A stretch of DNA of 64,000 nt from the NCBI GenBank assembly GCA_014382705.1, contig JACNJE010000082.1, forward strand, positions 19,665 to 83,664. Reading direction: 5' to 3'. How positions within the stretch are numbered: position 1 is the first letter of the stretch; the number at the start of each line of letters is the position of its first letter. Source of the DNA: Verrucomicrobiota bacterium (lineage in GTDB: Bacteria; Verrucomicrobiota; Verrucomicrobiia; Limisphaerales; UBA1096). Under the pieces are notes generated by a model. It was not told the DNA's origin. It saw nothing but the letters and a program-made list of their open reading frames with translations, and searched no databases. The position numbers and the translations under genes were made by a program. Positions 2,346-34,048 of the stretch are shown one piece after another.

Positions 2346-3233
2346 GTGAAACTCAGTCGCCAATCGCACTGCAAAATCAACCTGCTGCTCAACGTCACCG
2401 GCCGGCGCGCCGATGGCTTTCACGAGCTGGAGATGCTGATGCTGCCGGTGCCGCTCTTTGATCGGCTCGACTTCGAGTTGGCCGGCGAGCGCATCGAGCT
2501 GACCTGCAACCGGCCCGGCATCCCCACCGACGCAGGCAACTTGGTTTGCCAAGCCGCCGAGTCGTTCGCGGCCAAGGCCAGCGTCTCCGGCGGCGTCCGC
2601 ATCCACCTCGAGAAAACCATCCCGGCCGAGGGCGGACTCGGCGGCGGCAGCGGCAACGCGGCGGCAACCCTCCTCGCGCTCAACGAGCTTCATGGCCAGC
2701 CGCTTGCCCAAGCGGCGCTTCAGGCGCTCGCCGCCGAACTCGGCAGCGACGTCCCATTCTTTCTGCAAGCCGAAGCCGCCGTGGCCAAGGGGCGCGGCGA
2801 GATCATCGAGCCGATCGCCCCGCTCACCGCGCTCGACGGCAAGGTGCTGCTGCTCGTCCGGCCCGGCTTCGGCGTCCCGACGCCGTGGGCGTACCGCAGC
2901 TTGGCCCAGTTTCCCGATGCGGCAACCCGCCCGCTTGGCCAAGCGGATGAACTGGCCAAACGGTTGGCCAACGGCTCACTCGCCGCTGCTGCCGGTGCGT
3001 TTTACAACTCACTCGAGGCGCCGGTCTTCGACAAGTTCCCGCTGCTGAAGTTGCTGAAAGAACACGCCTTGGCCAATGGCGCGGAGGCCGCGCTCCTGTG
3101 CGGAAGCGGCTCGACCGTCTTCGCAATCTGCCCGGACACGGCGGCGGCGCAGTCGCTTGGCCAAGCGATGGAGTCCAAATTCGGCCAGCAGCCACTCACG
3201 CAAGTCGTCCGGCTGCCTTGCAAAACAGGGTAA
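2346..3233 (+). CDS. ispE: 4-diphosphocytidyl-2-C-methyl-D-erythritol kinase
   Basis: N-terminal KINLLLNVTGRRADGFHELE and the GHMP kinase motif PAEGGLGGGSGNAAATLLAL. GTG start. Confidence 0.9.
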   Translation: MKLSRQSHCKINLLLNVTGRRADGFHELEMLMLPVPLFDRLDFELAGERIELTCNRPGIPTDAGNLVCQAAESFAAKASVSGGVRIHLEKTIPAEGGLGGGSGNAAATLLALNELHGQPLAQAALQALAAELGSDVPFFLQAEAAVAKGRGEIIEPIAPLTALDGKVLLLVRPGFGVPTPWAYRSLAQFPDAATRPLGQADELAKRLANGSLAAAAGAFYNSLEAPVFDKFPLLKLLKEHALANGAEAALLCGSGSTVFAICPDTAAAQSLGQAMESKFGQQPLTQVVRLPCKTG

Positions 3234-15402: not shown

Positions 15403-15900
15403 ATGGACGGCGGCGACTGGGCGATTCGACTGACGGCGTTTCTCGCCTTTGCGGGGTATGTGCTCGCGCTGGCCGGTTGCGCCGGGCGGACGCGGCGGGC
15501 CGGGCCAAGCGGCAGCGGCTGGTGGGCGCTTGGCCTGGCGGCCTTCATGGCGCACCTGACCTGCGCCTTCCAATTCGAGCACGGCTGGAGCCATGCCCGG
15601 GCATTGGCGGCCACTGCCGCGCAAACGGCTGAGATCACCGGCGTCAACACCGGCGTCGGGCTTTACCTGAATTACGTCTTCGCCCTGGGCTGGACCGGGG
15701 ATGCCGCCTGGCGGCGCTTGGCCAAGCGGAGCCACGAGAGCCGGCCAGCCTGGGTGGGCGCGGCGCTGCACGGGTTCATGGCGTTCATGTGGCTCAACGC
15801 GACGGTGGTCTTTGGCTCGCCGTGGGGGCAGGCCGCCGGATGGGCGGCCGTCATCGGGCTGGGCGGATGGTTTGCGCTCCAGCGCGGGCGGGCGCTTTAG
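15403..15900 (+). CDS. Hypothetical integral membrane protein
   Basis: 165-aa ORF with about 4 hydrophobic segments. No family recognised. The coding call rests on ORF length and position only. Confidence 0.4.
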   Translation: MDGGDWAIRLTAFLAFAGYVLALAGCAGRTRRAGPSGSGWWALGLAAFMAHLTCAFQFEHGWSHARALAATAAQTAEITGVNTGVGLYLNYVFALGWTGDAAWRRLAKRSHESRPAWVGAALHGFMAFMWLNATVVFGSPWGQAAGWAAVIGLGGWFALQRGRAL

Positions 15901-18900
15901 CCGGCTTGGCCAAGCTCCTTTTTTTGCTGCTCAAGCAGGATGGTGACTTTTTGAAGCTCCGCCTCCGCTTGGCCAAGCAGGGTTTGGGCGTCGTCCAGCA
16001 GCCCGGTTTTTCCCATTTTTTCAACGGCCTCACACACCTTGGCCAGTTGCCCGGCGCGAAGGTTGCGGGCGCTGCCATTGAGCGAGTGGGCCGCTTCGCC
16101 GATTTCGGCGGCATCGCCGGTGGCCAGCGCCTCCCGGGCCTGGGCCAGACGCGCCGGGGCGTCCTGCAAAAACAGGTCGATCAGCTCCGCCACCACAGCG
16201 GCATCGCCAAAGGAGCGCAGCCCCTCGGCGATGGAGGCGGCATCGCTCGGGCCGGCCTCCCCGCGTGCCGCGCCCACTTCGCCGGCGATCCCCCCAAGCG
16301 CCTGGTCAAGCTGGCCAAGGTCGATCGGCTTGATGAGGTAATCATCCATGCCAGCGTCGAGGCATTTGCGTTTTTCGTCCGGGTCGGCGTTGGCGGTGAC
16401 CGCCAAGATGCGGGTTTGCCGGGCGCGACCCGGGAGTTTGCGGATGGCGCGGGTGGCTTCGCTGCCGTTCATCTCCGGCATGTGGCAATCCATCAGCACC
16501 ACGTCGTACGGCGTTTTGCGGATCGCCTCGAGCGCCTCGAGCCCGTTGGCCACCGCGTCCGCCGCGTAGCCGAGGTTACCAAGCTGCAGCAGCAGAACCT
16601 TGCGGTTCACCCGGTTGTCTTCCGCCACCAATATCCGGAGCGGCTTGGCTTCGCCCTTCGCGGGTTGATCGGCGGACGGCCGGTCGCCGGAAGCGGCTTC
16701 GCCCCCGAGCAGGCGGATGATGCCGTCGAGCAACCGGGACTGCTTGACCGGCTTGGTGAGGCAGTCATCGATGCCGGCGCCCTGCCGCGAGTCGGGCGGC
16801 GGGACGTTCCCCATCGGGGTCAGCAGGATCAATTTCAACTCGGCAAAAAGCAGATCGTTCTTGATGGCACGGGCCAGGCCGAGGCTGTCCTCCTCCGGCA
16901 TTTCACTGTCCAGGATGACCACCTGAAACGGCAGGTCGGTGGCGACCGCCTCCTGGAGCAACTGCAACGCCCCGGCCGCCTCGCGCGCCTCGGTGGTCTT
17001 GATCCGGCGCGAACCGAGTTGGTGGCGCAGAACCTGGAGGCTGGTGTCGTCGTTCGCGACAACCAGCACCTTCAGCCCGGCCAACATCTGCCGCTGCTCC
17101 TCCGCCACGCCGGGCTGGAGCTGCTTGCGCAGCGGCAGTTCGAACCAGAAACTCGACCCCTGCCCCAGCTTGCTCTCGAGCCCGATCCGGCCGCCCATGA
17201 TCTCGGTCAACTGCTTGGAAATGGTCAGGCCAAGGCCGGTGCCGCCGTAACGGCGCGAGAGCGAGCCGTCCCCCTGTGTGAACGGCTGAAACAGGCGCTT
17301 TTGGGAGTCCGCGGAGATGCCGGTGCCGGTGTCAACAATCTCGCAGCGGATCGTCACTTTGCGGCCGGTTTCGCTCACATTGCTGAGCCGCACCGTGACT
17401 TCGCCCTGCTCGGTGAACTTGATCGCGTTGCCGACCAGATTGGTCACGATCTGCCGCAGCCGGCCCGGGTCACCGATGACACTCGTCCAGACGTCCTCGA
17501 ACACCACGCAGGCCAGGTGCAGCCCCTTGCCCCGGGCCTGCTCCGCCAGCAGGTCGACGGCGCTCTCGACCGTCTCGCGAAGGTCGAACGGGGCCGCCTC
17601 GATCTCCAGCTTGCGCGCCTCGATTTTCGAGAAGTCGAGGATGTCGTTGATGACCCCCAGCAGCGCGTCGGCGCTTTGCCGGATGGTGGTGAGGAAGTCG
17701 CGCTGCTGCTCATTCAGCGGCGTTTCGAGCAGCAGCCCGGTCATGCCCATGATGGCGTTCATCGGCGTGCGAATCTCATGGCTGGTGTTGGCGAGAAACT
17801 CCGACTTGACCTTCGCCGACTCCAGCGCGGCGTCCCGGGCCTGGGCCAACTCGGCCTCGGCCTTTTTCAGGGGAGTGATGTCCTTGGAGATGCCGAACGT
17901 CCCGACGATTTCCCCGTCAGCGTTGCGCATCGGCATCTTGGTGGTGAGCACCCACCCCTCGCGGCCGTCGTTCCAGGTTTCCTTTTCGGTCTTGCCGATG
18001 ATGCCCTGGCCGGTCTCGAGGATGGCCTGCTCATCCTCGAGCGCGAGCCGGGCGTGTTCCTCGCTAAAAAAATCGGCATCCTTTTTGCCGACCGCCCCGC
18101 CGGGATCATCGAGCCCGAAATCTTTGGCCACGGCCCGGCTGATCATCAGGAACCGGCTGTCACGATCCTTGAAATAAATCCGATCCGGGATGTTGTCGAG
18201 CAGCGTGCGCAGCAGGTCGCGCTCATGCGCCAGCGCGATCTCGGTGCGCCGCTGCTGGGTGACATCCCAAAAAATGCCCTGCACGCCGGTGCACCGGCCG
18301 GCCTCATCGTGGATCGGAGTCTTGACGATATGCACCCACGACTTCTCCCCCTCCGGCGTGACGTGTTCCTCCACCGTGTCCAGCGACTCGCGGCTCTCCA
18401 TGATGCCGATGTCGTCCTCGCGGTATTTTTTCGCGAGGTCAGCCGGAAAAAAATCGAGGTCGGTTTTGCCGATAATCTCACGGCGCGTCCTGCCCAGCTC
18501 CCCGCAGAACCGCGCGTTGGCAAAGGTGAATTTCCCGGCGGCGTCCTTGCGGAAGATGTTTTGCGGCAGGTTCTCCACCAGCGAGTGAAACAGAATCTCC
18601 GAGCGGCGCAGCTCCAGCTCGGCCCCTTTCTGCTCGCTGATATCCTGCACCGTGCCCTCGTAATAAAGTGCCTTGCCGGACACATCCCACACCGTCCGGG
18701 CCGTCTCCGAGATCCAGATCCGGGAGCCGTCCCGGCGAAAAATCTCCGACTCGAACTGCTCGATGCGCCCCTGTTGCTGGATCAGTTTCAGGAACAAGTC
18801 CCTCTGCTTCGGCTCCACGTACAGCTGCCCCTCGATATCCCCAATCGCCTCGATCATCTGTGCCGGGGAGTCGTACCCGTACAGTTCCGCCAGCCGGTGG

Positions 18901-19019
18901 TTCGCGTAGACATAGCGGCCCTCCTCCGTGGAGCGAAAAATGCCCACTACGACATCGTCGAACACCTCCGGGTTCCGGACAGGATCGGTGGGCGGTTTTT
19001 TGTGGCTCGGTTTCGTCAT
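15897..19019 (-). CDS. Hybrid sensor histidine kinase (multiple PAS, HisKA, HATPase, two receiver domains, C-terminal HPt)
   Basis: SHEIRTPMNAIMGM (H-box), GGTGLGLTISKQL (G2), receiver ILVAEDNRVNRKV...VLMDCHMPEMNG, and an HPt-like AHSLNGSARNL. Start set at MTKPSHKK (19019) rather than the upstream ORF start at 19352. Confidence 0.85.
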   Translation of the reverse strand: MTKPSHKKPPTDPVRNPEVFDDVVVGIFRSTEEGRYVYANHRLAELYGYDSPAQMIEAIGDIEGQLYVEPKQRDLFLKLIQQQGRIEQFESEIFRRDGSRIWISETARTVWDVSGKALYYEGTVQDISEQKGAELELRRSEILFHSLVENLPQNIFRKDAAGKFTFANARFCGELGRTRREIIGKTDLDFFPADLAKKYREDDIGIMESRESLDTVEEHVTPEGEKSWVHIVKTPIHDEAGRCTGVQGIFWDVTQQRRTEIALAHERDLLRTLLDNIPDRIYFKDRDSRFLMISRAVAKDFGLDDPGGAVGKKDADFFSEEHARLALEDEQAILETGQGIIGKTEKETWNDGREGWVLTTKMPMRNADGEIVGTFGISKDITPLKKAEAELAQARDAALESAKVKSEFLANTSHEIRTPMNAIMGMTGLLLETPLNEQQRDFLTTIRQSADALLGVINDILDFSKIEARKLEIEAAPFDLRETVESAVDLLAEQARGKGLHLACVVFEDVWTSVIGDPGRLRQIVTNLVGNAIKFTEQGEVTVRLSNVSETGRKVTIRCEIVDTGTGISADSQKRLFQPFTQGDGSLSRRYGGTGLGLTISKQLTEIMGGRIGLESKLGQGSSFWFELPLRKQLQPGVAEEQRQMLAGLKVLVVANDDTSLQVLRHQLGSRRIKTTEAREAAGALQLLQEAVATDLPFQVVILDSEMPEEDSLGLARAIKNDLLFAELKLILLTPMGNVPPPDSRQGAGIDDCLTKPVKQSRLLDGIIRLLGGEAASGDRPSADQPAKGEAKPLRILVAEDNRVNRKVLLLQLGNLGYAADAVANGLEALEAIRKTPYDVVLMDCHMPEMNGSEATRAIRKLPGRARQTRILAVTANADPDEKRKCLDAGMDDYLIKPIDLGQLDQALGGIAGEVGAARGEAGPSDAASIAEGLRSFGDAAVVAELIDLFLQDAPARLAQAREALATGDAAEIGEAAHSLNGSARNLRAGQLAKVCEAVEKMGKTGLLDDAQTLLGQAEAELQKVTILLEQQKKELGQAG

Positions 19020-19030
19020 GCGCGGGGCGT

Positions 19031-19153
19031 TCGCTTGGCCAAGCGGAGGGTAGGAACTCCCCCCCGCTTGGCCAAGCGCATTCGCTCTCGGTCCCGCTCG
19101 GCGCTTTACCGGCCCGGGCGCACGGGGCAGACTGCCGCCCCGCTTGGCCAAGC
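19031..19153. repeat. Three palindrome copies in the histidine kinase/nfo divergent spacer
   Basis: 12-mer starts at 19032, 19065 and 19141. Confidence 0.9.
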
Positions 19154-19167
19154 CGGGCGGGGCGATA

Positions 19168-20040
19168 ATGAAACTCGGTTCCCACATGTCCGCCGCCGGC
19201 GGTGCCTGGAAAGCCATCGAGCGCGCCCGCTCGGTGGAGTGCCAAAGCACGCAGATTTTCGTCAAGAGCAACATGCAGTGGTTCGGCAAGCCGCCCAAGC
19301 CGGCCGACGCCGAGCGCTTCCGGGTGGAGCTGGCCAAGGGCGACGTGGGCACGGTGTTCGGCCACGCCGGCTACCTCATCAACCTCGCCGGGCCGGACGG
19401 CGACAACCGCGACAAGTCGATCGAGTCGCTCACGCAGGAGATCGAGTTTGCCACGACGCTGGGCGTGCCGTTCCTTGTGCTGCACCCCGGCGCGCACCTT
19501 GGCCAGGGCGACGACCGGGGCGTGAAGCGCATCGCGCGGGCGCTGAACGAAATTTTCCGCGTCACGAAAAAATCGCCGGTCCGCATTGCGCTGGAGAACA
19601 CCGCCGGGCAGGGCACCTGCCTTGGCCACCGCATCCGGCATCTCGCCGATATTTTCGAGCGCGTCAAGCAGCCGGAGCGGCTCGGCGTCTGCCTCGACAC
19701 GGCCCATTTCTTCGCCGCCGGCTACGACATCCGCACCCGCAACGGCTGGGACGCCGCGATCGCCGAGGTCGAACAAATGATCGGTCTGGAGCAGGTGCTG
19801 GCGTTTCACCTCAACGACTCGAAGACCGACCTCAACTCACGAGTCGACCGGCACGACCACATCGGCCACGGGCTGATCGGCAAAAAGGCGTTCGCGCACA
19901 TCGTCAACGACCCCCAATTCGCCGACACGCCGGGCTGCCTCGAGACGCCGAAGTCGCCCGACCTGCACGAGGATGTCGCCAACCTGAGCACCCTTCGCTC
20001 GCTCCTCAATAAGCGCAAACGCCCCCGGAAAACCGGGTGA
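19168..20040 (+). CDS. nfo: Deoxyribonuclease IV (endonuclease IV)
   Basis: MKLGSHMSAAGG..., LENTAGQG and HLNDSK motifs of the AP endonuclease family 2. Confidence 0.85.
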   Translation: MKLGSHMSAAGGAWKAIERARSVECQSTQIFVKSNMQWFGKPPKPADAERFRVELAKGDVGTVFGHAGYLINLAGPDGDNRDKSIESLTQEIEFATTLGVPFLVLHPGAHLGQGDDRGVKRIARALNEIFRVTKKSPVRIALENTAGQGTCLGHRIRHLADIFERVKQPERLGVCLDTAHFFAAGYDIRTRNGWDAAIAEVEQMIGLEQVLAFHLNDSKTDLNSRVDRHDHIGHGLIGKKAFAHIVNDPQFADTPGCLETPKSPDLHEDVANLSTLRSLLNKRKRPRKTG

Positions 20041-23695: not shown

Positions 23696-23804
23696 GCTTA
23701 TGCGTTTTTACGTTAATGTCTATTGACATAGTGTAGATTTAAGCTGTACGTTGCCTGTTTGGGTGCCGCTTGGCCAACCGCTTGGCTCGGTATCTTTACC
23801 AAAT

Positions 23805-24065
23805 ATGACGACAGAAAATGCACCTTTATTGACCGAATCGCCGCTGCGCAGCGCCCTTAAAGGGTTCACTTGGCGCTTGGTGGCGACATTCACGACGGTG
23901 GTGATCGCCTACTGCATAACTGGTAAACAGGCCCTGGCGTTGCAAATCGGGGCGGTTGAGTTTGTGGCCAAGCTCGTCGTGTACTACGTCCATGAACGGG
24001 CTTGGGTGAGGGTACCGTTCGGGCGAGGGCTGCTGAAAACCGGAGGAAACGGGGATAAGGTTTGA
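23805..24065 (+). CDS. DUF2061-family small membrane protein
   Basis: KGFTWRLVATFTTVVIAYCITG...KLVVYYVHERAW pattern. The ATG at 23805 is preferred over the TTG at 23751. Confidence 0.6.
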   Translation: MTTENAPLLTESPLRSALKGFTWRLVATFTTVVIAYCITGKQALALQIGAVEFVAKLVVYYVHERAWVRVPFGRGLLKTGGNGDKV

Positions 24066-24090
24066 CAAGCTGGCCCGTTTTACGCTTCAT
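24062..24090 (+). promoter_or_regulatory. Candidate promoter for the riboswitch-controlled operon
   Basis: Perfect -35 TTGACA (24062-24067), a 17-nt spacer, and a weak -10 CTTCAT (24085-24090). It would start transcription about 15-20 nt before P1. Confidence 0.3.
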
Positions 24091-24112
24091 TCCGTGTCGC
24101 CGCCTTGGCGGC

Positions 24113-24231
24113 GTTCTCATTAAGAGTGGTTGAGGGATTTGGCCCGATGACACCACGGCAACCGGTTGGCCCGCGAAGCCAATGACAAGGTGCCAATTCC
24201 AGCCCGGCGGGTTGCCGGGAAAAATGGGACG
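24113..24231 (+). promoter_or_regulatory. SAM-I riboswitch (S-box) aptamer
   Basis: UUCUCAUUAAGAGUGGUUGAGGGAUUUGGCCCGAUGACACCACGGCAACC...AAGGUGCCAAUUCCAGCC...GAAAAAUGGGA matches the SAM-I core almost base for base. P1 is 24115-24121 paired with 24223-24229. Confidence 0.9.
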
Positions 24232-24252
24232 AGATCGCGGAATTAAATTTCA

Positions 24253-24284
24253 CCCCTTCTCGTCTTTCGGGAAGGGGCTTTTTT
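24253..24284 (+). terminator. Riboswitch expression-platform intrinsic terminator
   Basis: 10-bp stem CCCCTTCTCG (24253-24262) / CGGGAAGGGG (24268-24277) with a 5-nt loop, followed by C and T6. GACGAGA (24228-24234) can pair with TCTCGTC (24258-24264) as an antiterminator. Confidence 0.85.
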
Positions 24285-24323
24285 GTCCCACTCACTCCCA
24301 CCTTTCGCAACGGAAGCAGAACC

Positions 24324-25583
24324 ATGAGCAAGAGTGCAGGATTCATGCGGGCACTGAAGTGCCGCGAGTGCGGGCGGGAATATCCGCTCGAGGCCACCCA
24401 TGTGTGCGAGTTCGACTTCGGGCCGCTCGAGGTCGCGTACGACTACGACAAGATCAGGAAGTCGATGACCAAGGCCGCCCTGGCCAAGCGGCCGGAAACC
24501 ATGTGGCGTTTCCGCGAGCTGCTGCCGGTGGCCGACGAGCCGACCGTCGGCACGCGCGTCGGCTACACGCCGCTCGTCAAGGCCGACCGCTTGGCCAAGT
24601 GGCTCGGTGTGCGCGAGGCTTGGGTGAAGAACGACGCCGTCAACTACCCGACGCTGTCGTTCAAGGATCGCGTCGTGAGCGTTGCTCTGAGTCGCGCCAA
24701 GGAGCTGGGCTTCGAGACGGTCGCCTGCGCCTCCACCGGCAACCTCGCCAACTCGGTCGCCGCCAATGCCGCCTCCGCCGGGCTGGATGCGGTCGTGTTC
24801 ATCCCGGCCGACCTCGAGGAGGGCAAGATTCTCAACTCGCTGATTTACGGCGCACGCGTCGTTGGCATCCGCGGCCATTACGACGAGGTGAACCGGCTCT
24901 GCGCCGAGATTGCCGGCAAGTATGGCTGGGCCTTCGTCAACGTGAACATGCGCCCGTACTACGCGGAGGGGTCGAAGAGCATGGCGTATGAGATCGCCGA
25001 GCAGCTCGACTGGAAACTGCCGCAGCACACCGTCGTGCCGATGGCGTCCGGCTCGCTGCTTACGAAGATTCACAAGGGCTATCAGGAATTGATCCAGCTC
25101 GACTTAACCAAGGATTCGAAGCCGACCGTGCACGGCGCGCAAGCCACCGGCTGCTCGCCGATCTCCGCGGCATTCAAGCAGGGGATGGATTTTTTCAAGC
25201 CGGTCAAGCCGGACACCATCGCCAAGTCGCTCGCCATCGGCACGCCGGCGGACGGGTTTTACGCGCTGAAGGTGATGAAGGAGACCGGCGGCGCGTCCGA
25301 CGACGTGAGCGACGACGAGATCCGCGAGGCGATGTCGGCGCTGGCCGAGTGCGAGGGCATCTTCACCGAGACGGCCGGCGGCGTGACCGTGGGCACGGCC
25401 AAGAAACTGGTTGCCTCGGGCAAGATTCCCGCCGAGGATTCGGTCGTGCTTTGCGTCACCGGCAACGGCCTCAAGACGCTCGACGCCGTGCAGGGGCACG
25501 TCGGCAAACCGGCCGGCATCAAGCCGAGCCTGCGCGAGTTTGAGCAATTGATGGAGAAAGACGGCAAAGTCAAATCGAAGTAA
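24324..25583 (+). CDS. Threonine-synthase-family PLP enzyme (ThrC-like); predicted homocysteine-forming enzyme because of its SAM riboswitch and sulfur-carrier partner
   Basis: N-terminal zinc ribbon (CRECG...HVCEFDFGPLE) and the PLP lysine motif PTLSFKDRVVS. A SAM-I riboswitch lies upstream and MoaD-like and NIL genes lie downstream. Confidence 0.8.
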   Translation: MSKSAGFMRALKCRECGREYPLEATHVCEFDFGPLEVAYDYDKIRKSMTKAALAKRPETMWRFRELLPVADEPTVGTRVGYTPLVKADRLAKWLGVREAWVKNDAVNYPTLSFKDRVVSVALSRAKELGFETVACASTGNLANSVAANAASAGLDAVVFIPADLEEGKILNSLIYGARVVGIRGHYDEVNRLCAEIAGKYGWAFVNVNMRPYYAEGSKSMAYEIAEQLDWKLPQHTVVPMASGSLLTKIHKGYQELIQLDLTKDSKPTVHGAQATGCSPISAAFKQGMDFFKPVKPDTIAKSLAIGTPADGFYALKVMKETGGASDDVSDDEIREAMSALAECEGIFTETAGGVTVGTAKKLVASGKIPAEDSVVLCVTGNGLKTLDAVQGHVGKPAGIKPSLREFEQLMEKDGKVKSK

Positions 25584-25601
25584 CCCGAGACCTATTTCAG
25601 C

Positions 25602-25877
25602 ATGGCAGTCACAATCAGAATCCCCACCCCGCTGCGGAAGCTCACCAACGAGCAGGAAACCGTCGAGGTCGAGTCCGCCACGATCGGCGCGGCCGTCGAT
25701 GAACTCGAAGGCAAGTTCCCCGGCATCAAGGAGCGGCTCGTCGGAGAGGACGGCGAGATCCGCCGCTTCGTGAACGTCTACGTCAACGAGGAGGACATCC
25801 GCTTCCTCGACAACCAGGCCACCCCGCTCAAGGACGGCGACGATGTCAGCATCATCCCGGCCATCGCCGGCGGCTAA
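25602..25877 (+). CDS. MoaD/ThiS-family ubiquitin-like sulfur-carrier protein ending in Gly-Gly
   Basis: 91 aa. The beta-grasp-like sequence ends ...DGDDVSIIPAIAGG immediately before the stop codon. Confidence 0.7.
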   Translation: MAVTIRIPTPLRKLTNEQETVEVESATIGAAVDELEGKFPGIKERLVGEDGEIRRFVNVYVNEEDIRFLDNQATPLKDGDDVSIIPAIAGG

Positions 25878-25880
25878 CCC

Positions 25881-26174
25881 ATGGCAGCCAAGAAAAAGGC
25901 GGTCCGCAAAACCAAGCGCCCGGCCAAGACCCGCAAGACCGCGCGCCTCTGGCTGATGTTCCCGCCCAAGCTCATCACCAAGCCGGTCGTTTGGGAGCTG
26001 TCCCAAAAGTTCCCCGTCATCACCAACGTCCGCCAAGCCAGTGTCACCGGCGAGATCGGCCTGGTTTGCCTCGAGCTCGACGGCTTGGCCAACGATGTGA
26101 AAAAAGCGATCAGTTGGCTCGAGCGCAAGGGTGTCAACGTCGAGCCGGTCGAGATCAACGTCATCGAAAGCTGA
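25881..26174 (+). CDS. NIL-domain protein
   Basis: 97 aa with a basic N-terminus followed by ...PVVWELSQKFPVITNVRQASV...GLVCLELDG...AISWLERKGVNVEPV, resembling the NIL domain found at the MetN C-terminus. It starts 4 nt after the MoaD-like gene. Confidence 0.6.
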   Translation: MAAKKKAVRKTKRPAKTRKTARLWLMFPPKLITKPVVWELSQKFPVITNVRQASVTGEIGLVCLELDGLANDVKKAISWLERKGVNVEPVEINVIES

Positions 26175-26245
26175 GTTTCATTCTCACGCGAAGCCGCGAA
26201 GAAAAGAATCCCAGCGGATTCCGTTCTAAAGCCCAAGGTTGCAAA

Positions 26246-26328
26246 CAGGCTGTAAGCCTGAATCTACGTAGCCGGGGGCAGCGCCCCCGGTATCCGACAG
26301 ACCAATCCACTGTGCCCTGTAAGGGCAC
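26246..26328. repeat. Array of three short GC-rich hairpins in a convergent spacer
   Basis: CAGGCT-GTA-AGCCTG (26246-26260), CCGGGGGC-AGC-GCCCCCGG (26272-26290) and GTGCCCT-GTA-AGGGCAC (26312-26328). Confidence 0.6.
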
Positions 26329-26378
26329 TGCAATCGCGTTAATTGAATTACGGTTGAACACCCCTTCCAGGGCCCCGG

Positions 26379-27011
26379 CTAAACGGGCGGGATCTTGCGC
26401 GGGGGCGGGGCTTTCACGAAGTCCACTTGCCGGAGGTACACCGGCGAGAGCTCGGAGGCCTCAACGAAATCACTGCGACCCCCGGCCAGCCGACCGACAT
26501 GCTCGGCGGCGGGAAAGTTGTCGCCCACGCCGGGGCCGATGGCGAGCTGGCCGGCGGCGAGCAGTGCCTCGTATTCCGCGCGCTTGGCCAACTGCATCGG
26601 CTCGACGGTGCGGATGCCTTCGTCGATCAACTCGTATTTGGCCAGATAAAACTCCCCGCGCTGGGCGTCCACCGCCAGCGTGATTGCGCCACGCCGCCCG
26701 GCCGCCTGCTCGCCCCTGGCCAAGGCCTCGAGGCTGTCCACGCCAAGCACCTTCACGCCGAGCGCGAGTTGCCAGCCCTGCGTCAGCGCGATCGCCGCAC
26801 GGATGCCGGTGTACGAGCCGGGGCCGATGCCGACGGCGATGCAGTCGATCTCCGTCCGCCCGACCGCCGCTTGGCCAAGTGCGGACTCGATCAGTGCCAC
26901 CGCCGCAGTGTCCCGGCCCTCAGTGACGGTTTGCTCCGCCAGGAGCCGTGCGCCGTCCAGCACGGCGACGCTCCGGTGGTCGGACGAAAACTCAATGGCC
27001 AAAATCTTCAT
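26379..27011 (-). CDS. tsaB: tRNA t6A37 biosynthesis protein TsaB
   Basis: MKILAIEFSSDHRSVAVL...GIGPGSYTGIRAAIA signature. Start located inside the long 26379..27947 ORF. Confidence 0.8.
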   Translation of the reverse strand: MKILAIEFSSDHRSVAVLDGARLLAEQTVTEGRDTAAVALIESALGQAAVGRTEIDCIAVGIGPGSYTGIRAAIALTQGWQLALGVKVLGVDSLEALARGEQAAGRRGAITLAVDAQRGEFYLAKYELIDEGIRTVEPMQLAKRAEYEALLAAGQLAIGPGVGDNFPAAEHVGRLAGGRSDFVEASELSPVYLRQVDFVKAPPPRKIPPV

Positions 27012-30836: not shown

Positions 30837-32915
30837 TCATTTGCCTTCCGCCGGCTTGGCCGGGACCGGGGGCGGCGGGAAAGCCGTCGGCCCCGGTGTC
30901 GGCAGGGATTTCGGCAGGGATTTCGGCAGGCTGACGGGGGTGGAGTGGCCTCCGCCGGGCGGCTCATAGCTCACGTAGGAGCCGTTCTCATCGAGCAGCG
31001 TGGCGGTGACAAAAATCAGCAGGTACCGAGGCTTGTCGATGGAGGAGCGCTTGCGGAAGATGGAGCCGATGCCGGGCAGGTTGCCGAGGATCGGGACCGA
31101 CTCGACAATGGTACGCTGTTCACGCTCCAGCACGCCGCCCATCATTATGCTTTGGCCGGAGCCGACCACGACGCGCGTGGCGAGTTCCTGCGTTCGCCAC
31201 TGGGGGAGGTAAATCTCGAGCTTGTTCTGCTCGCCTTCAGAAGCTTCATCGAAGGTCTGGCCCTTGAGTGAGACATAGCTGACATTTTGATTCACCACCG
31301 GATGCAAGGCGATCAGGATACGTTGTCCATCTCCTCCGATACTGGCCACGACCTCCAGTGAAACGCCCGCAGTGATTTTGCTGGGGGTACCTTTTGGAAC
31401 CAAGCGTTGAGTGTATTGGCGTTCGGTCAACGTTTCCTCAATCGTAAATTCCTCGTAGAAGTAATTCACTTGGCCATCGTTGATGGAGCCTGGCCGGTTG
31501 TTGAGCAGCGTCAGGCGCGGCGCGCTAAGCAACTGGCTCTCGCCGCTCTGCTCGAGCGCGGTCAGCGCTGCAGACAGGTCGGCGTTGCTGAGGATGCTGT
31601 TTTCCTTGAACACGTTCTTGAACGTGATCCTTGTCAGCAGGCCCTCCTCGCTTCCCAGCGCCCCTGCGCCGATTCCGGTCTGGTCTTGTGGCGAATTACC
31701 CGCAACGCTGGACGCCCACCGGAAACCAAGGTCGAGAAACGACGCCTCGGAGATCGTGATGAATCGCGCCTCGATCAAAACCTGCTGAATCGGACGGTCA
31801 AACTCCTCGATGATACGCTCCAGAACCTCGAACTGCGTCGGCGTGCCGGTAGCGACGATGAGGTTCCGCTCGTAGTCGATCATAAAGTCCGGGCCCTTGA
31901 AAAACTTGGCGATGGCATCCTCGATCGACGGCCTTTTCGTGATGCTGTCGTTCACAAACATCTCATACTTGGCCGTCTCCGTGATGGTGGCCGGCCCCTT
32001 CTCCGGTTTCACGGTCACCAGCGTGGTCTCCTCCGGGCCAAACTGCGCCGGCATTATGAAGCCCTGCCGCAACCGGTAAAACCGCGTCTGCTCGATCAGC
32101 TCCTTCGACGCCTTGCCGTCGATCACCCAGATCAGATCCTCCCCAACCTGGAACTGCACGCCTGCGTTGCGTGAAATATAGCCCAGCAGCTCGCTCAGCT
32201 TCACCTTCTCGAGGCTGAGCGTCAGCTTTTGCTGAAGTGGTGCCAGCCCCTCGTCGGCGATGAAGTTGATGCCCTCTTTCCCGCCGATGTTGAAAAGAAT
32301 GTCCTTCACGGTTTGCTGATCGACCTGGATGGACACCGTGTTGTCGAGCAGGCCGGACATGCGGCCCTGCTCGCTCTGCGCGTCGAACAGAAACCCCTGC
32401 TTGGTGATTTGTTTGCCGAAGGTATCCGGAACGTACGGCTCAGCCTGAATCATCTCGAGGGCGTCGCGAATATCCTTGCGAGGCGGCAGGCCGCGGCTCT
32501 TTTGATCCTCCCAGATGTCCTTGATCGACGGGTTCATCCCGGTGTGCGTTGCATCGATCGAGCGGATGCGATCCTCAATGGCCTGCTCCCGGAGTATCGT
32601 TTTCTGCGTGGCCACCCACTCACCAATCCGCAGGAGCGTCTTGTCTTCCGGATGTTGTTGCAGCAACAGGCCCACCTCAGCCTCTGCCTCCTCCCACTTG
32701 CCCCTCTCGGACAGGCGGAAGATCGACTCGAGCTCCCGGTCGTATGCCGCGCTGTACTCCACCCGGTCGTTCAGGTTGAACGACCCGTCGTCACCCTGCC
32801 TCGACGACTGGCAGCCGGCCGCCATCACCAACGCCAAGCCGACAGCCACGCCGATGCAGCGCTTGGCCAAGCGCTGTCGGCAAGTTGCTACACTCGAATT
32901 ACAGGTTTTCATCAC
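30837..32915 (-). CDS. Secretin (type II/type IV-pilus secretion system outer-membrane channel), lipoprotein-type signal, Pro-rich C-terminus
   Basis: LLSAPRLTLLNNRPGSI... and VPILGNLPGIGSIFRKRSSIDKPRYLLIFVTATLL form a secretin C-domain. N-terminal LALVMAAGC lipobox. Confidence 0.8.
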   Translation of the reverse strand: MMKTCNSSVATCRQRLAKRCIGVAVGLALVMAAGCQSSRQGDDGSFNLNDRVEYSAAYDRELESIFRLSERGKWEEAEAEVGLLLQQHPEDKTLLRIGEWVATQKTILREQAIEDRIRSIDATHTGMNPSIKDIWEDQKSRGLPPRKDIRDALEMIQAEPYVPDTFGKQITKQGFLFDAQSEQGRMSGLLDNTVSIQVDQQTVKDILFNIGGKEGINFIADEGLAPLQQKLTLSLEKVKLSELLGYISRNAGVQFQVGEDLIWVIDGKASKELIEQTRFYRLRQGFIMPAQFGPEETTLVTVKPEKGPATITETAKYEMFVNDSITKRPSIEDAIAKFFKGPDFMIDYERNLIVATGTPTQFEVLERIIEEFDRPIQQVLIEARFITISEASFLDLGFRWASSVAGNSPQDQTGIGAGALGSEEGLLTRITFKNVFKENSILSNADLSAALTALEQSGESQLLSAPRLTLLNNRPGSINDGQVNYFYEEFTIEETLTERQYTQRLVPKGTPSKITAGVSLEVVASIGGDGQRILIALHPVVNQNVSYVSLKGQTFDEASEGEQNKLEIYLPQWRTQELATRVVVGSGQSIMMGGVLEREQRTIVESVPILGNLPGIGSIFRKRSSIDKPRYLLIFVTATLLDENGSYVSYEPPGGGHSTPVSLPKSLPKSLPTPGPTAFPPPPVPAKPAEGK
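32857..32876. repeat. Extended 20-bp perfect palindrome CAGCGCTTGGCCAAGCGCTG inside the secretin signal-peptide codons
   Basis: Read from the sequence. Translates (minus strand) as ..RQRLAKRC.. Confidence 0.9.
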
Positions 32916-34048
32916 GCTGCCGCGGCCTGGTCATCGACCAGACGATACCAGTTGTCCCGTTGTCGCGCCTCGTAGCCGATGCCCTCAATCAGGCGCCTCA
33001 TGTCCGGGACGCCCATTCGGAATGTCGTGCCGGCCTCGGAAACCACGTTCTCCTCGATCATGATGCTGCCCAAGTCGTTCGCGCCGTACCGCAGCGCCAC
33101 CTGGCCCACCTCGAGCCCCTGCGTCACCCACGAGCTTTGGATGTTCGGGATGTTGTCGAGAAAGATTCGGCTGATGGCCTGCATACGCAGGTATTCACTG
33201 GCTCCGACCTCCGGCGCGTTGAGCCGGGTGTTCTCCGCCTGAAATGTCCACGCAATGAACGCCGTGAAGCCTCCGGTCTCGTCCTGCTGACGCCGCACCC
33301 GCTCGAGGTGTTCAATCCGTTGGCCAAGCGACTCGACGTGTCCAAACATCATCGTCGCCGTCGAGGCCATGCCCAGCCGGTGCGCCACCGCCATCACCTC
33401 CAGCCAGTCGTCGCTCATCGCCTTGAGTGGCGAAATGCGCTGGCGGACCGCGTCGACCAGGATTTCGCCACCGCCGCCGGGGATCGAGCCCAGGCCGGCG
33501 TCGCGGAAATCCCGGATCAGCGTCTCCAGCGGCTCGTCGAACACGTCACGAAAATGGATGAACTCGCTGGGGCTGAAGCCGTGAATGTTGATCTGCGGAA
33601 ACTTGTCGCGGATGTGCGACAGCAGGTCGAGGTACCACTGCTTGTCGAGCTTCGGGTGATGCCCGCCCTGCATCAGAATCTGCGTGCCGCCCAGCGCGAT
33701 CGTCTCCTCGATTTTTTGGTCGATCTCGTCGTGGGTGATCACGTACGAGTCGTCCTGTTTTTCCGTCCGCCAAAACGCGCAGAACTTGCAGTAGACGTTG
33801 CAGACGTTGGTGTAGTTGATGTTGCGGTCGACGATGTAGGTGGCGATGTCGTTGCCCCGCCCGCCGTAGGCATCCGCCTTGGCCAAGCGGCGACGGCGAT
33901 CCGCCAGCGCGCCTAGCTGCGGCATCGGCAGCTCATACAGCGTTGCCGCCTCGTCGGCGCTCACGCGCCCGCCGTCCCACGCCTTTTGGCAGATTGCCTC
34001 CTTGGTGGCATCCAAGCCCACGGCGGGAATGTAGTCGTTCGCGGCCAA
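32912..34048 (-). CDS. mqnC: Futalosine-pathway radical SAM enzyme, MqnC-like (MqnC/MqnE/CofH family)
   Basis: YIVDRNINYTNVCNVYCKFCAFWR radical SAM cluster motif and GGTQILMQGGHHP. The MqnC versus MqnE choice is from memory of the RNINYTN context. Confidence 0.55.
   Translation of the reverse strand: MAANDYIPAVGLDATKEAICQKAWDGGRVSADEAATLYELPMPQLGALADRRRRLAKADAYGGRGNDIATYIVDRNINYTNVCNVYCKFCAFWRTEKQDDSYVITHDEIDQKIEETIALGGTQILMQGGHHPKLDKQWYLDLLSHIRDKFPQINIHGFSPSEFIHFRDVFDEPLETLIRDFRDAGLGSIPGGGGEILVDAVRQRISPLKAMSDDWLEVMAVAHRLGMASTATMMFGHVESLGQRIEHLERVRRQQDETGGFTAFIAWTFQAENTRLNAPEVGASEYLRMQAISRIFLDNIPNIQSSWVTQGLEVGQVALRYGANDLGSIMIEENVVSEAGTTFRMGVPDMRRLIEGIGYEARQRDNWYRLVDDQAAAA

Follow-up and report, generated by a model that had tools for sequence, protein, structure and literature searches.

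Homocysteine is made from O-phosphohomoserine in Streptomyces albulus by the MetM/MetO pathway, the closest described counterpart of the operon considered here (Hasebe et al. 2024, Appl Environ Microbiol 90:e01247-24, PMC11497804, as summarised in later papers). A 2026 GapMind preprint presents MetM as a ThrC homologue that acts as a thiocarboxylate-dependent homocysteine synthase, MetO as the sulfur carrier, MoeZ as the sulfur ligase of MetO and Mec as a hydrolase, and includes the pathway in GapMind. A second paper places an S-adenosylmethionine (SAM) riboswitch upstream of S. albulus metM and gives an identity to S. albulus MetM of 51.6% for a cyanobacterial homologue; a third gives only 33% for Bacillus subtilis ThrC. 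Against this background, we analyzed a locus in a 64,000-nucleotide (nt) stretch of a Verrucomicrobiota genome (assembly GCA_014382705.1, contig JACNJE010000082.1, positions 19,665 to 83,664), the whole of which is referred to below as the window. Here, a SAM-I riboswitch precedes three genes encoding a ThrC-family pyridoxal 5'-phosphate (PLP) enzyme resembling MetM, a MetO-like sulfur carrier ending in Gly-Gly, and a small stand-alone NIL-domain protein.

We consider it probable that these elements form a three-gene methionine-biosynthesis operon under a SAM-I termination switch, which uses MetM/MetO chemistry and retains the NIL protein as a carrier-linked accessory. Whereas the leader is a SAM-I riboswitch of textbook type, metM and metO would add a further member to the system published in 2024. 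The NIL partner, conserved and sometimes fused, appears to be undescribed; it constitutes a comparative-genomics lead for which the mechanism proposed below is plausible.

A SAM-I leader with a termination-type expression platform

Only one Rfam family was matched in the 64 kb window, namely SAM-I (RF00162), whose hit at 24114-24230 (+) takes in the whole model (positions 1-108 of 108) and scores 88.1 bits against a gathering score of 44.4 (E-value 1.4e-19). Downstream of this S-box riboswitch aptamer, a terminator scan recovered an intrinsic terminator at 24253-24284 (+), consisting of a 10-bp stem with 7 G-C pairs and a 5-nt loop (24253-24277), followed by a U6 tract (T6 at 24279-24284), with a fold energy of approximately -18.8 kcal/mol. 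An antiterminator of 7 bp spans 24228-24264 (+). Its arms, GACGAGA (24228-24234) and UCUCGUC (24258-24264; TCTCGTC in the DNA), are exact complements, the former overlapping the P1 3' strand and the latter the terminator 5' arm and loop. Terminator and antiterminator compete over the P1 3' strand, and the leader layout reads as the classic S-box anti-antiterminator/antiterminator/terminator arrangement. An earlier sequence-only reading of this DNA (hereafter the original prediction) had placed the aptamer at 24113-24231, the 10-bp terminator with its U6 at 24253-24284 and the antiterminator at the two arms given above; the aptamer boundaries are slightly revised by the covariance-model scan, and the other two elements were recovered exactly where they had been drawn.

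To assess conservation of the leader, we used 80 related loci from different species, collected with the NIL protein as bait and nearly all labelled Verrucomicrobiota. Where the start of metM is complete (66 loci), all but one have the aptamer ahead of it (65), and a hairpin followed by a U-run is present in 63 of 68 distinct leaders. Distant relatives carry GAGAAGAG and CUCUUCUC as their antiterminator segments, with both sides altered and complementarity intact; in more distant leaders, the P1 3' strand ends in ...AUGAGAAGAG and the terminator 5' arm is CCUCUUCUC, where the window has the pair GACGAGA/UCUCGUC. Retention of the pairing while both arms change supports a transcription off-switch. 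Across the wider set of loci, SAM-I aptamers were found 5' of metM-like genes in Verrucomicrobiota- and Actinomycetota-labelled loci, in one Chloroflexota-type locus and in two unassigned loci. The minimum-free-energy fold of the whole leader does not reproduce the aptamer (z = -1.8), as is to be expected of a ligand-dependent four-way junction, for which the covariance model is the relevant test. Taken together, these observations support the prediction that the leader is a SAM-responsive transcription-termination switch.

Several further features flank the aptamer. Immediately 5' of it, a G+C-rich hairpin, CGCCGCCTTGGCGGCG (24098-24113, +), with six G-C pairs and a loop of 4, was recovered in the minimum-free-energy fold; it could be a 5' stabiliser or the transcript end of the upstream gene. 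The latter encodes a DUF2061 membrane protein (23751-24065), lies immediately upstream of the leader and keeps this position in the closest relatives. A candidate -35 hexamer, TTGACA (24062-24067, +), was read from the sequence and is uncertain: its best -10 candidate at 17-nt spacing, CTTCAT, has 3/6 matches, and a promoter scan of 23700-26500 returned no site above threshold.

A predicted MetM-like enzyme and its Gly-Gly carrier

The first gene of the operon (24324-25583, +) encodes a protein of 419 amino acids (aa) that matches PALP in Pfam (232 bits) and the NCBIfam thrC models TIGR00260 (274 bits; cutoff 167) and PRK08197 (295.6 bits; cutoff 303), and whose best PDB matches are threonine synthases (E-value 1e-52), identifying it as a ThrC-family fold-type II PLP enzyme. 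After a gap of 18 nt, the second gene (25602-25877, +) encodes a 91-aa sulfur carrier of the ThiS/MoaD family with the C-terminus AIAGG. It scores 65 bits against ThiS and 53.6 bits against moaD_arch (cutoff 49.5), and is a ThiS-family beta-grasp domain with a free Gly-Gly end. The Gly-Gly is immediately followed by the stop codon in the window carrier and in 80 of 81 relatives. The third gene, for the NIL-domain protein, begins after a further gap of 3 nt.

Placement of the enzyme relative to MetM and ThrC relied on an actinomycete proxy, the chromosome of Nonomuraea gerenzanensis (filed in plasmid records), standing in for S. albulus MetM. Its locus consists of a SAM-I aptamer (68.7 bits), an enzyme with 53.8% full-length identity to that of the window, and a 91-aa carrier that is 49% identical to the window carrier and likewise ends in AGG-stop. 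All remaining matches in the plasmid-record collection were at most 38.5% identical to the window enzyme and were annotated thrC wherever annotation existed. In a small identity matrix, carrier-adjacent enzymes were 50-81% identical to one another, whereas this MetM-like set showed 29-38% identity to annotated ThrC from Priestia and Salinigranum (35-38% for the window enzyme itself). The window gene adjoins a Gly-Gly carrier gene behind a SAM riboswitch, which is the layout reported for S. albulus. We conclude that the riboswitch and first two genes most probably belong to the known MetM/MetO system, the chemistry being assigned by homology, and that the 419-aa protein is a predicted MetO-thiocarboxylate-dependent homocysteine synthase. 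The direction of regulation also fits MetM, as a SAM off-switch suits an enzyme of the methionine pathway and not a threonine synthase; the threonine synthase of plants is activated by SAM.

Much of the original prediction is carried by these results. The gene order, ThrC-like, MoaD-like with Gly-Gly, then NIL, with gaps of 18 and 3 nt, is confirmed by open reading frames (ORFs) and profile matches, and the proposal that the ThrC-like enzyme makes homocysteine from O-phosphohomoserine with carrier sulfur gains support from homology and comparative genomics. The MetM/MetO route that it had named does exist, with MetO as the carrier, according to the GapMind summary cited above. What does not hold is the novelty implied by calling the pathway a prediction: although the reasoning was right, its core was already published and included in GapMind.

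A cognate E1-like enzyme is presumably encoded elsewhere in the genome: no ThiF domain was detected among the larger ORFs scanned in the window, in agreement with the earlier statement that no E1-like adenylating enzyme is present there. In Planctomycetota-type loci, ThiF genes adjoin the module.

The N-terminus of the enzyme carries a zinc-ribbon-like motif, seen as a NinF-like ribbon at residues 12-36. The motif itself (residues 13-31; window 24360-24416) reads C-x2-C...H-x-C-E-F-D in the window and its close Verrucomicrobiota-type relatives, the fourth ribbon cysteine being replaced by Asp in the window enzyme, and C-x2-C...C-x2-C in a Planctomycetes locus, Nonomuraea, the Chloroflexota-type L102 and the unassigned L093 and L096. 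Archaeal-type ThrC homologues also carry the ribbon, so it is not MetM-specific.

The interval between metM and metO is variable in content. A second ThiS-family carrier gene, whose product is 51-57% identical to the window MetO, lies there in L004/L031, L038, L050, L054, L055, L059, L067, L068 and L070. In other Verrucomicrobiota-type loci (L035:1600-6000, L082:4010-5664, L083:4318-5688 and L085:4391-5626), toxin-antitoxin cassettes occupy this position, comprising nucleotidyltransferase/HEPN or HepT pairs and PIN/Phd pairs. In L035, a 104-nt repeat corresponding to the metO 5' junction occurs four times between the cassettes, together with a copy of the metM 3' end; this looks like a small cassette array produced by repeated insertion at one site.

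The NIL protein is linked to the carrier across genomes

The third gene (25881-26174, +) encodes a 97-aa stand-alone NIL-domain protein (PF09383, 38.6 bits; cutoff 24), identical to a protein deposited from a Verrucomicrobia metagenome-assembled genome (MAG). Among the 80 related loci, metO lies directly upstream of the NIL gene in 79, and a metM-like gene is found upstream in 71 of the 75 that have enough sequence to judge, bearing out the co-occurrence of the three genes over genomes. Four loci show metO-NIL beside unrelated genes, without metM. As such pairs survive in unrelated surroundings, NIL appears to be tied most tightly to the carrier. In these four (L029, L032, L051 and L052), metM is missing within 3.7-5.7 kb upstream and there is no SAM-I aptamer; the upstream genes encode a phosphoesterase and a glycoside hydrolase in L029, and those of L051 are ORFs without a Pfam match. 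A separate case is L016, where 167 nt between metM and NIL (L016:5834-6000) hold no detectable metO, reflecting either a deletion or a MAG assembly fault.

A NIL profile search against 1.8 billion representative proteins retrieved 972 representatives at E <=1e-3, and domain architectures were typed for the best 150. Within these 150, stand-alone NIL proteins dominate (127), followed by NIL-NIL tandems (11), ThiS-NIL fusions (9-10) and fusions of NIL to a Prok-JAB (JAMM) protease (2). A further gene order was found in L102, a Chloroflexota-type locus on a 1.6-Mb contig, with a SAM-I aptamer (79.9 bits), a metM-like gene (53.5% identical), a NIL gene (80 aa) and then metO (ending VAGG), with sulfate-assimilation genes downstream. 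The family of its NIL protein, 80 aa in length, numbers more than 3,100 clusters, and the named members come from Chloroflexota and Dehalococcoidia.

The ThiS-NIL fusions make up at least 235 protein clusters, with both Pfam domains present in all of the best 120, and their source names include Planctomycetes, Planctomycetota and Sumerlaeota. In 50 aligned fusions, the carrier part always ends in PAIAGG and is followed by a Lys/Ala/Pro-rich linker of 0-25 residues and then by NIL; the basic tail of the window NIL looks like the counterpart of this linker. Their gene neighborhoods are as follows: metM, ThiS-NIL, ThiF and a class-V aminotransferase in L094 (a Planctomycetes MAG); metM, TusA, ThiS-NIL and Prok-JAB in L097/L098; a SAM-I aptamer, metM and ThiS-NIL in L093; and, in L096, a SAM-I aptamer (92.8 bits) followed by ThiS, CysM-like, ThiF, metM, sulfite-reductase-like, TusA, ThiS-NIL and again CysM-like and ThiF genes. 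Since a fused NIL blocks the Gly-Gly end that needs to be adenylated, the fusion has to be cut, and the JAB gene adjoining ThiS-NIL is a natural candidate for the predicted cleavage after Gly-Gly. Of the two JAB-NIL fusions, one (L090:113-862) is flanked by a CysK/M-like gene end on one side and by an APS kinase gene on the other, and the second (L092:5692-6405) occurs in a locus with PAPS reductase and ThiS, neighborhoods that would link NIL to thiocarboxylate-type cysteine synthesis as well. Given three gene orders, two kinds of fusion and a spread over several phyla, a functional connection of NIL with the carrier system, as read from genome comparison, is very hard to dismiss.

Two apparent forms of metO-NIL joining were examined and rejected. 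In L041, located on a MAG contig of 2 kb, the reading frame changes after Gly-Gly, and there is no true fusion. Programmed metO-NIL readthrough was considered for the window, where the two genes share a frame with TAA and one codon between them; the frame is shared in 31 of 81 distinct loci, approximately the chance expectation, and the gaps vary.

Sequence, fold and putative ligand site of the NIL protein

The window NIL comprises a basic disordered N-terminal tail of ~22 aa and a 75-aa core of beta-alpha-beta-beta-alpha-beta order. Stand-alone homologs form more than 1,100 close protein clusters, in which the 75-residue core is 59-100% identical with ~30 invariant positions, and is preceded by a variable N-terminal tail of 20-50 residues, among which Lys, Arg, Ala, Thr and Pro are abundant. 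An extreme form of this tail occurs in the metagenomic P0163 (161 aa), whose ~80 N-terminal residues of Lys/Ala repeats give a weak match to the histone H1-like HC2 (22.7 bits, under the Pfam cutoff of 40 bits). NIL-NIL tandems (P0132, P0143, P0164, P0175, P0228 and others) are 164-193 aa long; as in MetN, the domain might function as a dimer, with which the tandems would be in keeping.

The closest PDB entry by sequence is the C2 domain of the methionine transporter ATPase MetN (3dhx, E-value 0.002, ~25% identity), and the closest by fold in Foldseek are MetN chains (6cvl, 3tuz, 3tui); the stand-alone NIL model has the same order of secondary structures as MetN C2. The L-methionine bound by MetN spans the C2 dimer and is hydrogen-bonded by N295, the N295A substitution abolishing binding, and A299 lies on the dimer-interface strand, whose register shifts upon methionine binding. 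Pairwise alignment places N295 and A299 on N49 and A53 of the window NIL. These two belong to an N-x-R-x-A motif that is invariant both in the alignment of 28 close stand-alone relatives and in that of the ThiS-NIL fusions. The residues that are invariant over the whole family comprise N, R, A and two P and include no cysteine. The match of the conserved N49 and A53 to the methionine site favors a MetN-type small-molecule site, for which methionine or homocysteine would be the obvious candidate ligands. The only cysteine of the window protein, Cys63, is invariant in the 28 aligned close relatives; stand-alone NILs of other lineages have Ser, Thr, Ala or Val at this position, as do the ThiS-NIL fusions.

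A model for the operon and its alternatives

In the model that we favor, high SAM would lead the aptamer to close P1, leaving the terminator at 24253-24284 free to form, and transcription would stop before metM; at low SAM, the P1 3' strand (24228-24234) would instead pair with the terminator 5' arm (24258-24264) and polymerase would read through. An E1-like enzyme would adenylate the Gly-Gly end of the ubiquitin-fold MetO, yielding a C-terminal thiocarboxylate, and MetM, using PLP, would then swap the phosphate of O-phosphohomoserine for the MetO sulfur to give homocysteine; both chemical steps are predicted by homology to the characterized Streptomyces MetM/MetO. NIL would serve as an accessory partner of the carrier and not as a catalyst, made together with MetO and, in some phyla, as one polypeptide with it. 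By binding methionine or homocysteine, it would tune the use or maturation of MetO, thereby adding protein-level feedback to the RNA switch. From the sequence comparisons, we infer that such a methionine- or homocysteine-binding regulator of carrier use or maturation is its most likely role. More tentatively, and with odds clearly against it, ligand-bound NIL could gate JAMM cleavage after Gly-Gly in the fusions, with free NIL acting in trans on MetO or MetM. If true, such gating would be a bacterial counterpart of the processing of ubiquitin-fusion precursors, used as metabolic feedback, and amino-acid synthesis from protein thiocarboxylates would have in NIL, across several phyla, a general regulatory component that has gone unrecognised so far.

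Several observations weigh against the model as a whole or in part. The Nonomuraea locus has two genes and no NIL, and such a Streptomyces-type arrangement implies that NIL is not needed for the chemistry. Conversely, in the DUF39 pathway, a NIL-ferredoxin is genetically required for methionine synthesis, which hints that NIL can be more than a regulator. E1, sulfur donor and JAMM hydrolase genes are all absent from the larger ORFs scanned in the window, and the predicted orthology to characterized MetM leans on the actinomycete proxy. On the structural side, the stand-alone NIL model is of moderate confidence (predicted local distance difference test, pLDDT, 66.5). A natural ThiS-NIL fusion was modelled with AlphaFold to reveal a possible MetO-NIL interface, and no fixed packing between the domains resulted (predicted template-modelling score 0.47; linker pLDDT <50). 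Both domains are confidently folded in this model (pLDDT >90 for NIL) and their mutual orientation is undefined. This model fits an accessible cleavage site and is silent on a MetO-NIL interface, so we do not count it against an interaction.

The principal rival to a sensing role treats NIL as a specificity adaptor or handling factor, which would recognise MetO, or its adduct with homocysteine, and present this substrate to E1 or JAMM, or aid the release of homocysteine. The adduct is expected by analogy with CysO-cysteine, and E1 and JAMM would be housekeeping proteins encoded elsewhere. This is a possibility to which we give a minority share, and, as with the sensor, we infer it. The tighter bond of NIL to metO than to metM in the four loci with unrelated neighbors is what an adaptor would lead one to expect, as are the separate fusions of NIL to ThiS and to Prok-JAB proteases; the JAB-NIL genes beside a CysK/M-like fragment and APS kinase, or with PAPS reductase and ThiS, would extend it to a general role in amino-acid synthesis from thiocarboxylates, and the DUF39 homocysteine pathway offers a case in which a NIL-ferredoxin is required and not merely regulatory. 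The absence of a defined ThiS-NIL interface in the AlphaFold model speaks against it, however, and the conserved Asn/Ala strand, being the methionine and dimer strand of MetN, is more simply explained by small-molecule binding. The two roles are compatible, as NIL could bind the homocysteinyl moiety. A sulfur relay was one of two roles that the original prediction offered for NIL, the other being a methionine-sensing partner; in the form considered here, NIL would pass persulfide sulfur to adenylated MetO through Cys63. The invariance of Cys63 in close relatives and the lack of a rhodanese or TusA gene as sulfur donor among the larger window ORFs scanned would agree with it. However, the cysteine is not conserved beyond those close, mainly Verrucomicrobiota, relatives, being replaced in other stand-alone lineages and in ThiS-NIL fusions, it lies inside a modelled beta-strand, and a TusA gene of its own is present where NIL is fused. 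We therefore rejected Cys63 as a persulfide site and regard a relay as very improbable; the earlier view of NIL as a third component of the system stands, and this component is not confined to the window but conserved in several phyla.

Two further readings dispense with a role for NIL altogether, and we consider each of them highly improbable. The 419-aa enzyme could be an ordinary threonine synthase with the two small genes as unrelated passengers, as its scores above or near the cutoffs of the NCBIfam thrC models TIGR00260 and PRK08197 and its best PDB matches would suggest. Such a reading is at odds with the SAM off-switch upstream in 65 of 66 loci, with synteny to a Gly-Gly carrier that spans phyla, and with an identity of 54% to an actinomycete MetM-type gene versus 35-38% to annotated ThrC; moreover, GapMind describes MetM as often misannotated as threonine synthase. 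Alternatively, NIL could be the leftover of a cleaved C-terminal propeptide that capped MetO, functionless once separate. The fusions do place NIL right after Gly-Gly through a disordered linker that the basic tail of the window NIL resembles, yet the core is 59-100% identical over hundreds of stand-alone genes with many invariant residues, NIL is a separate gene in Verrucomicrobiota-type loci and stands in a different order in the Chloroflexota-type locus, and it also occurs fused to JAB and in NIL-NIL tandems. Such conservation implies selection for a function in trans.

Genomic surroundings of the operon

Typing of the window covered its larger ORFs, among which no E1/ThiF, rhodanese, TusA, JAMM or other met or thr genes were found. 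The housekeeping functions identified include TatC, IspE, fumarase, Sua5, an H+-pyrophosphatase, a hybrid histidine kinase, flagellin, TsaB/TsaE, ThiL and PurH, in addition to a secretin, MqnC, GlnS, UvrD, polysaccharide export genes, IF-3, DnaK and others. A GHMP kinase gene at 2346-3233, considered as a homoserine kinase that would supply the MetM substrate, was rejected because it corresponds to IspE (TIGR00154, 196 bits) and falls far under the cutoff for thrB. The hybrid histidine kinase (15897-19352, -) combines PAS, HisKA, HATPase, receiver and Hpt domains, and a 1407-aa ORF at 15789-20012 (+) is spurious, lying antisense to it in G+C-rich DNA. The MqnC gene (32912-34048, -), encoding a cyclic dehypoxanthinyl futalosine synthase (455 bits), indicates that the organism makes menaquinone by the futalosine route.

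Implications for annotation and NIL function

As metM-like genes are annotated as threonine synthase, methionine prototrophy is easily mispredicted in Verrucomicrobiota, Planctomycetota and Chloroflexota; the riboswitch and carrier gene together provide a reliable marker of the MetM route. With NIL, a pathway known only since 2024 gains a component that bears the signature of methionine binding seen in MetN. NIL thereby joins three unexplained appearances of this domain, in the MetN importer, the DUF39 pathway and the window operon, all of which could reflect one job, the binding of methionine or homocysteine. The ThiS-NIL fusions, as natural precursors that would need a cut after Gly-Gly, would furthermore make it possible to study, in a simple bacterial setting, how a ubiquitin-fold protein is matured by JAMM.

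Comparison with known systems

The window shares with the S. albulus MetM/MetO system a gene for a ThrC-homologous PLP enzyme, followed by a ThiS/MoaD-type carrier gene, with a SAM riboswitch upstream; the Nonomuraea locus has the same layout, its products being 54% and 49% identical to the window proteins. The window differs in adding a NIL gene that is absent from the actinomycete locus, in its Verrucomicrobiota lineage, and in having no MoeZ and Mec partners nearby. Full-text literature on the 'NIL domain', which covered the DUF39 pathway, coenzyme M and ABC transporters and did not extend to Hasebe et al. 2024, yielded no link of this domain to MetM/MetO or to ThiS-family carriers.

The CysM/CysO/Mec+ system of Mycobacterium tuberculosis likewise uses a protein thiocarboxylate to feed a PLP enzyme that acts on an O-phospho amino acid, and includes a JAMM hydrolase; it differs in employing a CysK/CysM-type enzyme of ~310 aa with O-phosphoserine as the substrate. 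To our knowledge, no NIL component has been described for CysM/CysO. In Wolinella succinogenes, homocysteine is reportedly formed from a carrier-protein thiocarboxylate by HcyS/HcyD/HcyF/MetY (Krishnamoorthy and Begley 2011), and the carrier reportedly has, when first made, a C-terminal extension that is then cut off by a metalloprotease. The ThiS-NIL fusions resemble HcyS in that they would likewise need cutting after Gly-Gly. Nevertheless, the Wolinella route uses MetY and O-acetylhomoserine, and its extension is a single residue, compared with an 80-aa folded NIL domain.

Two systems share the NIL domain itself. MetN C2 is the closest match in sequence and fold, with N295 and A299 aligned to the invariant N49 and A53, but NIL forms there the tail of an ABC ATPase, whereas the window NIL stands alone, has ThiS- or JAB-fused relatives, and is only ~25% identical. 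The DUF39 (COG1900) plus NIL-ferredoxin pair of methanogens and Desulfovibrio (MA1821/MA1822) similarly brings a NIL domain into a non-canonical homocysteine route, yet in that case it is fused to 4Fe-4S ferredoxin domains, and its partner in the reaction on aspartate semialdehyde is DUF39; the window NIL has no Fer4 match and one cysteine, and no DUF39 gene was found among the larger window ORFs scanned.

A more distant parallel is provided by the eukaryotic ubiquitin-ribosomal protein precursors, in which a Gly-Gly beta-grasp protein is also translated joined to a downstream protein and needs release by a protease. The likeness extends to the JAB/JAMM gene that adjoins some ThiS-NIL fusion genes, where cleavage is predicted by analogy. 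The two differ in what the released protein does, as ubiquitin precursors serve protein tagging, whereas a MetO-type carrier serves sulfur transfer.

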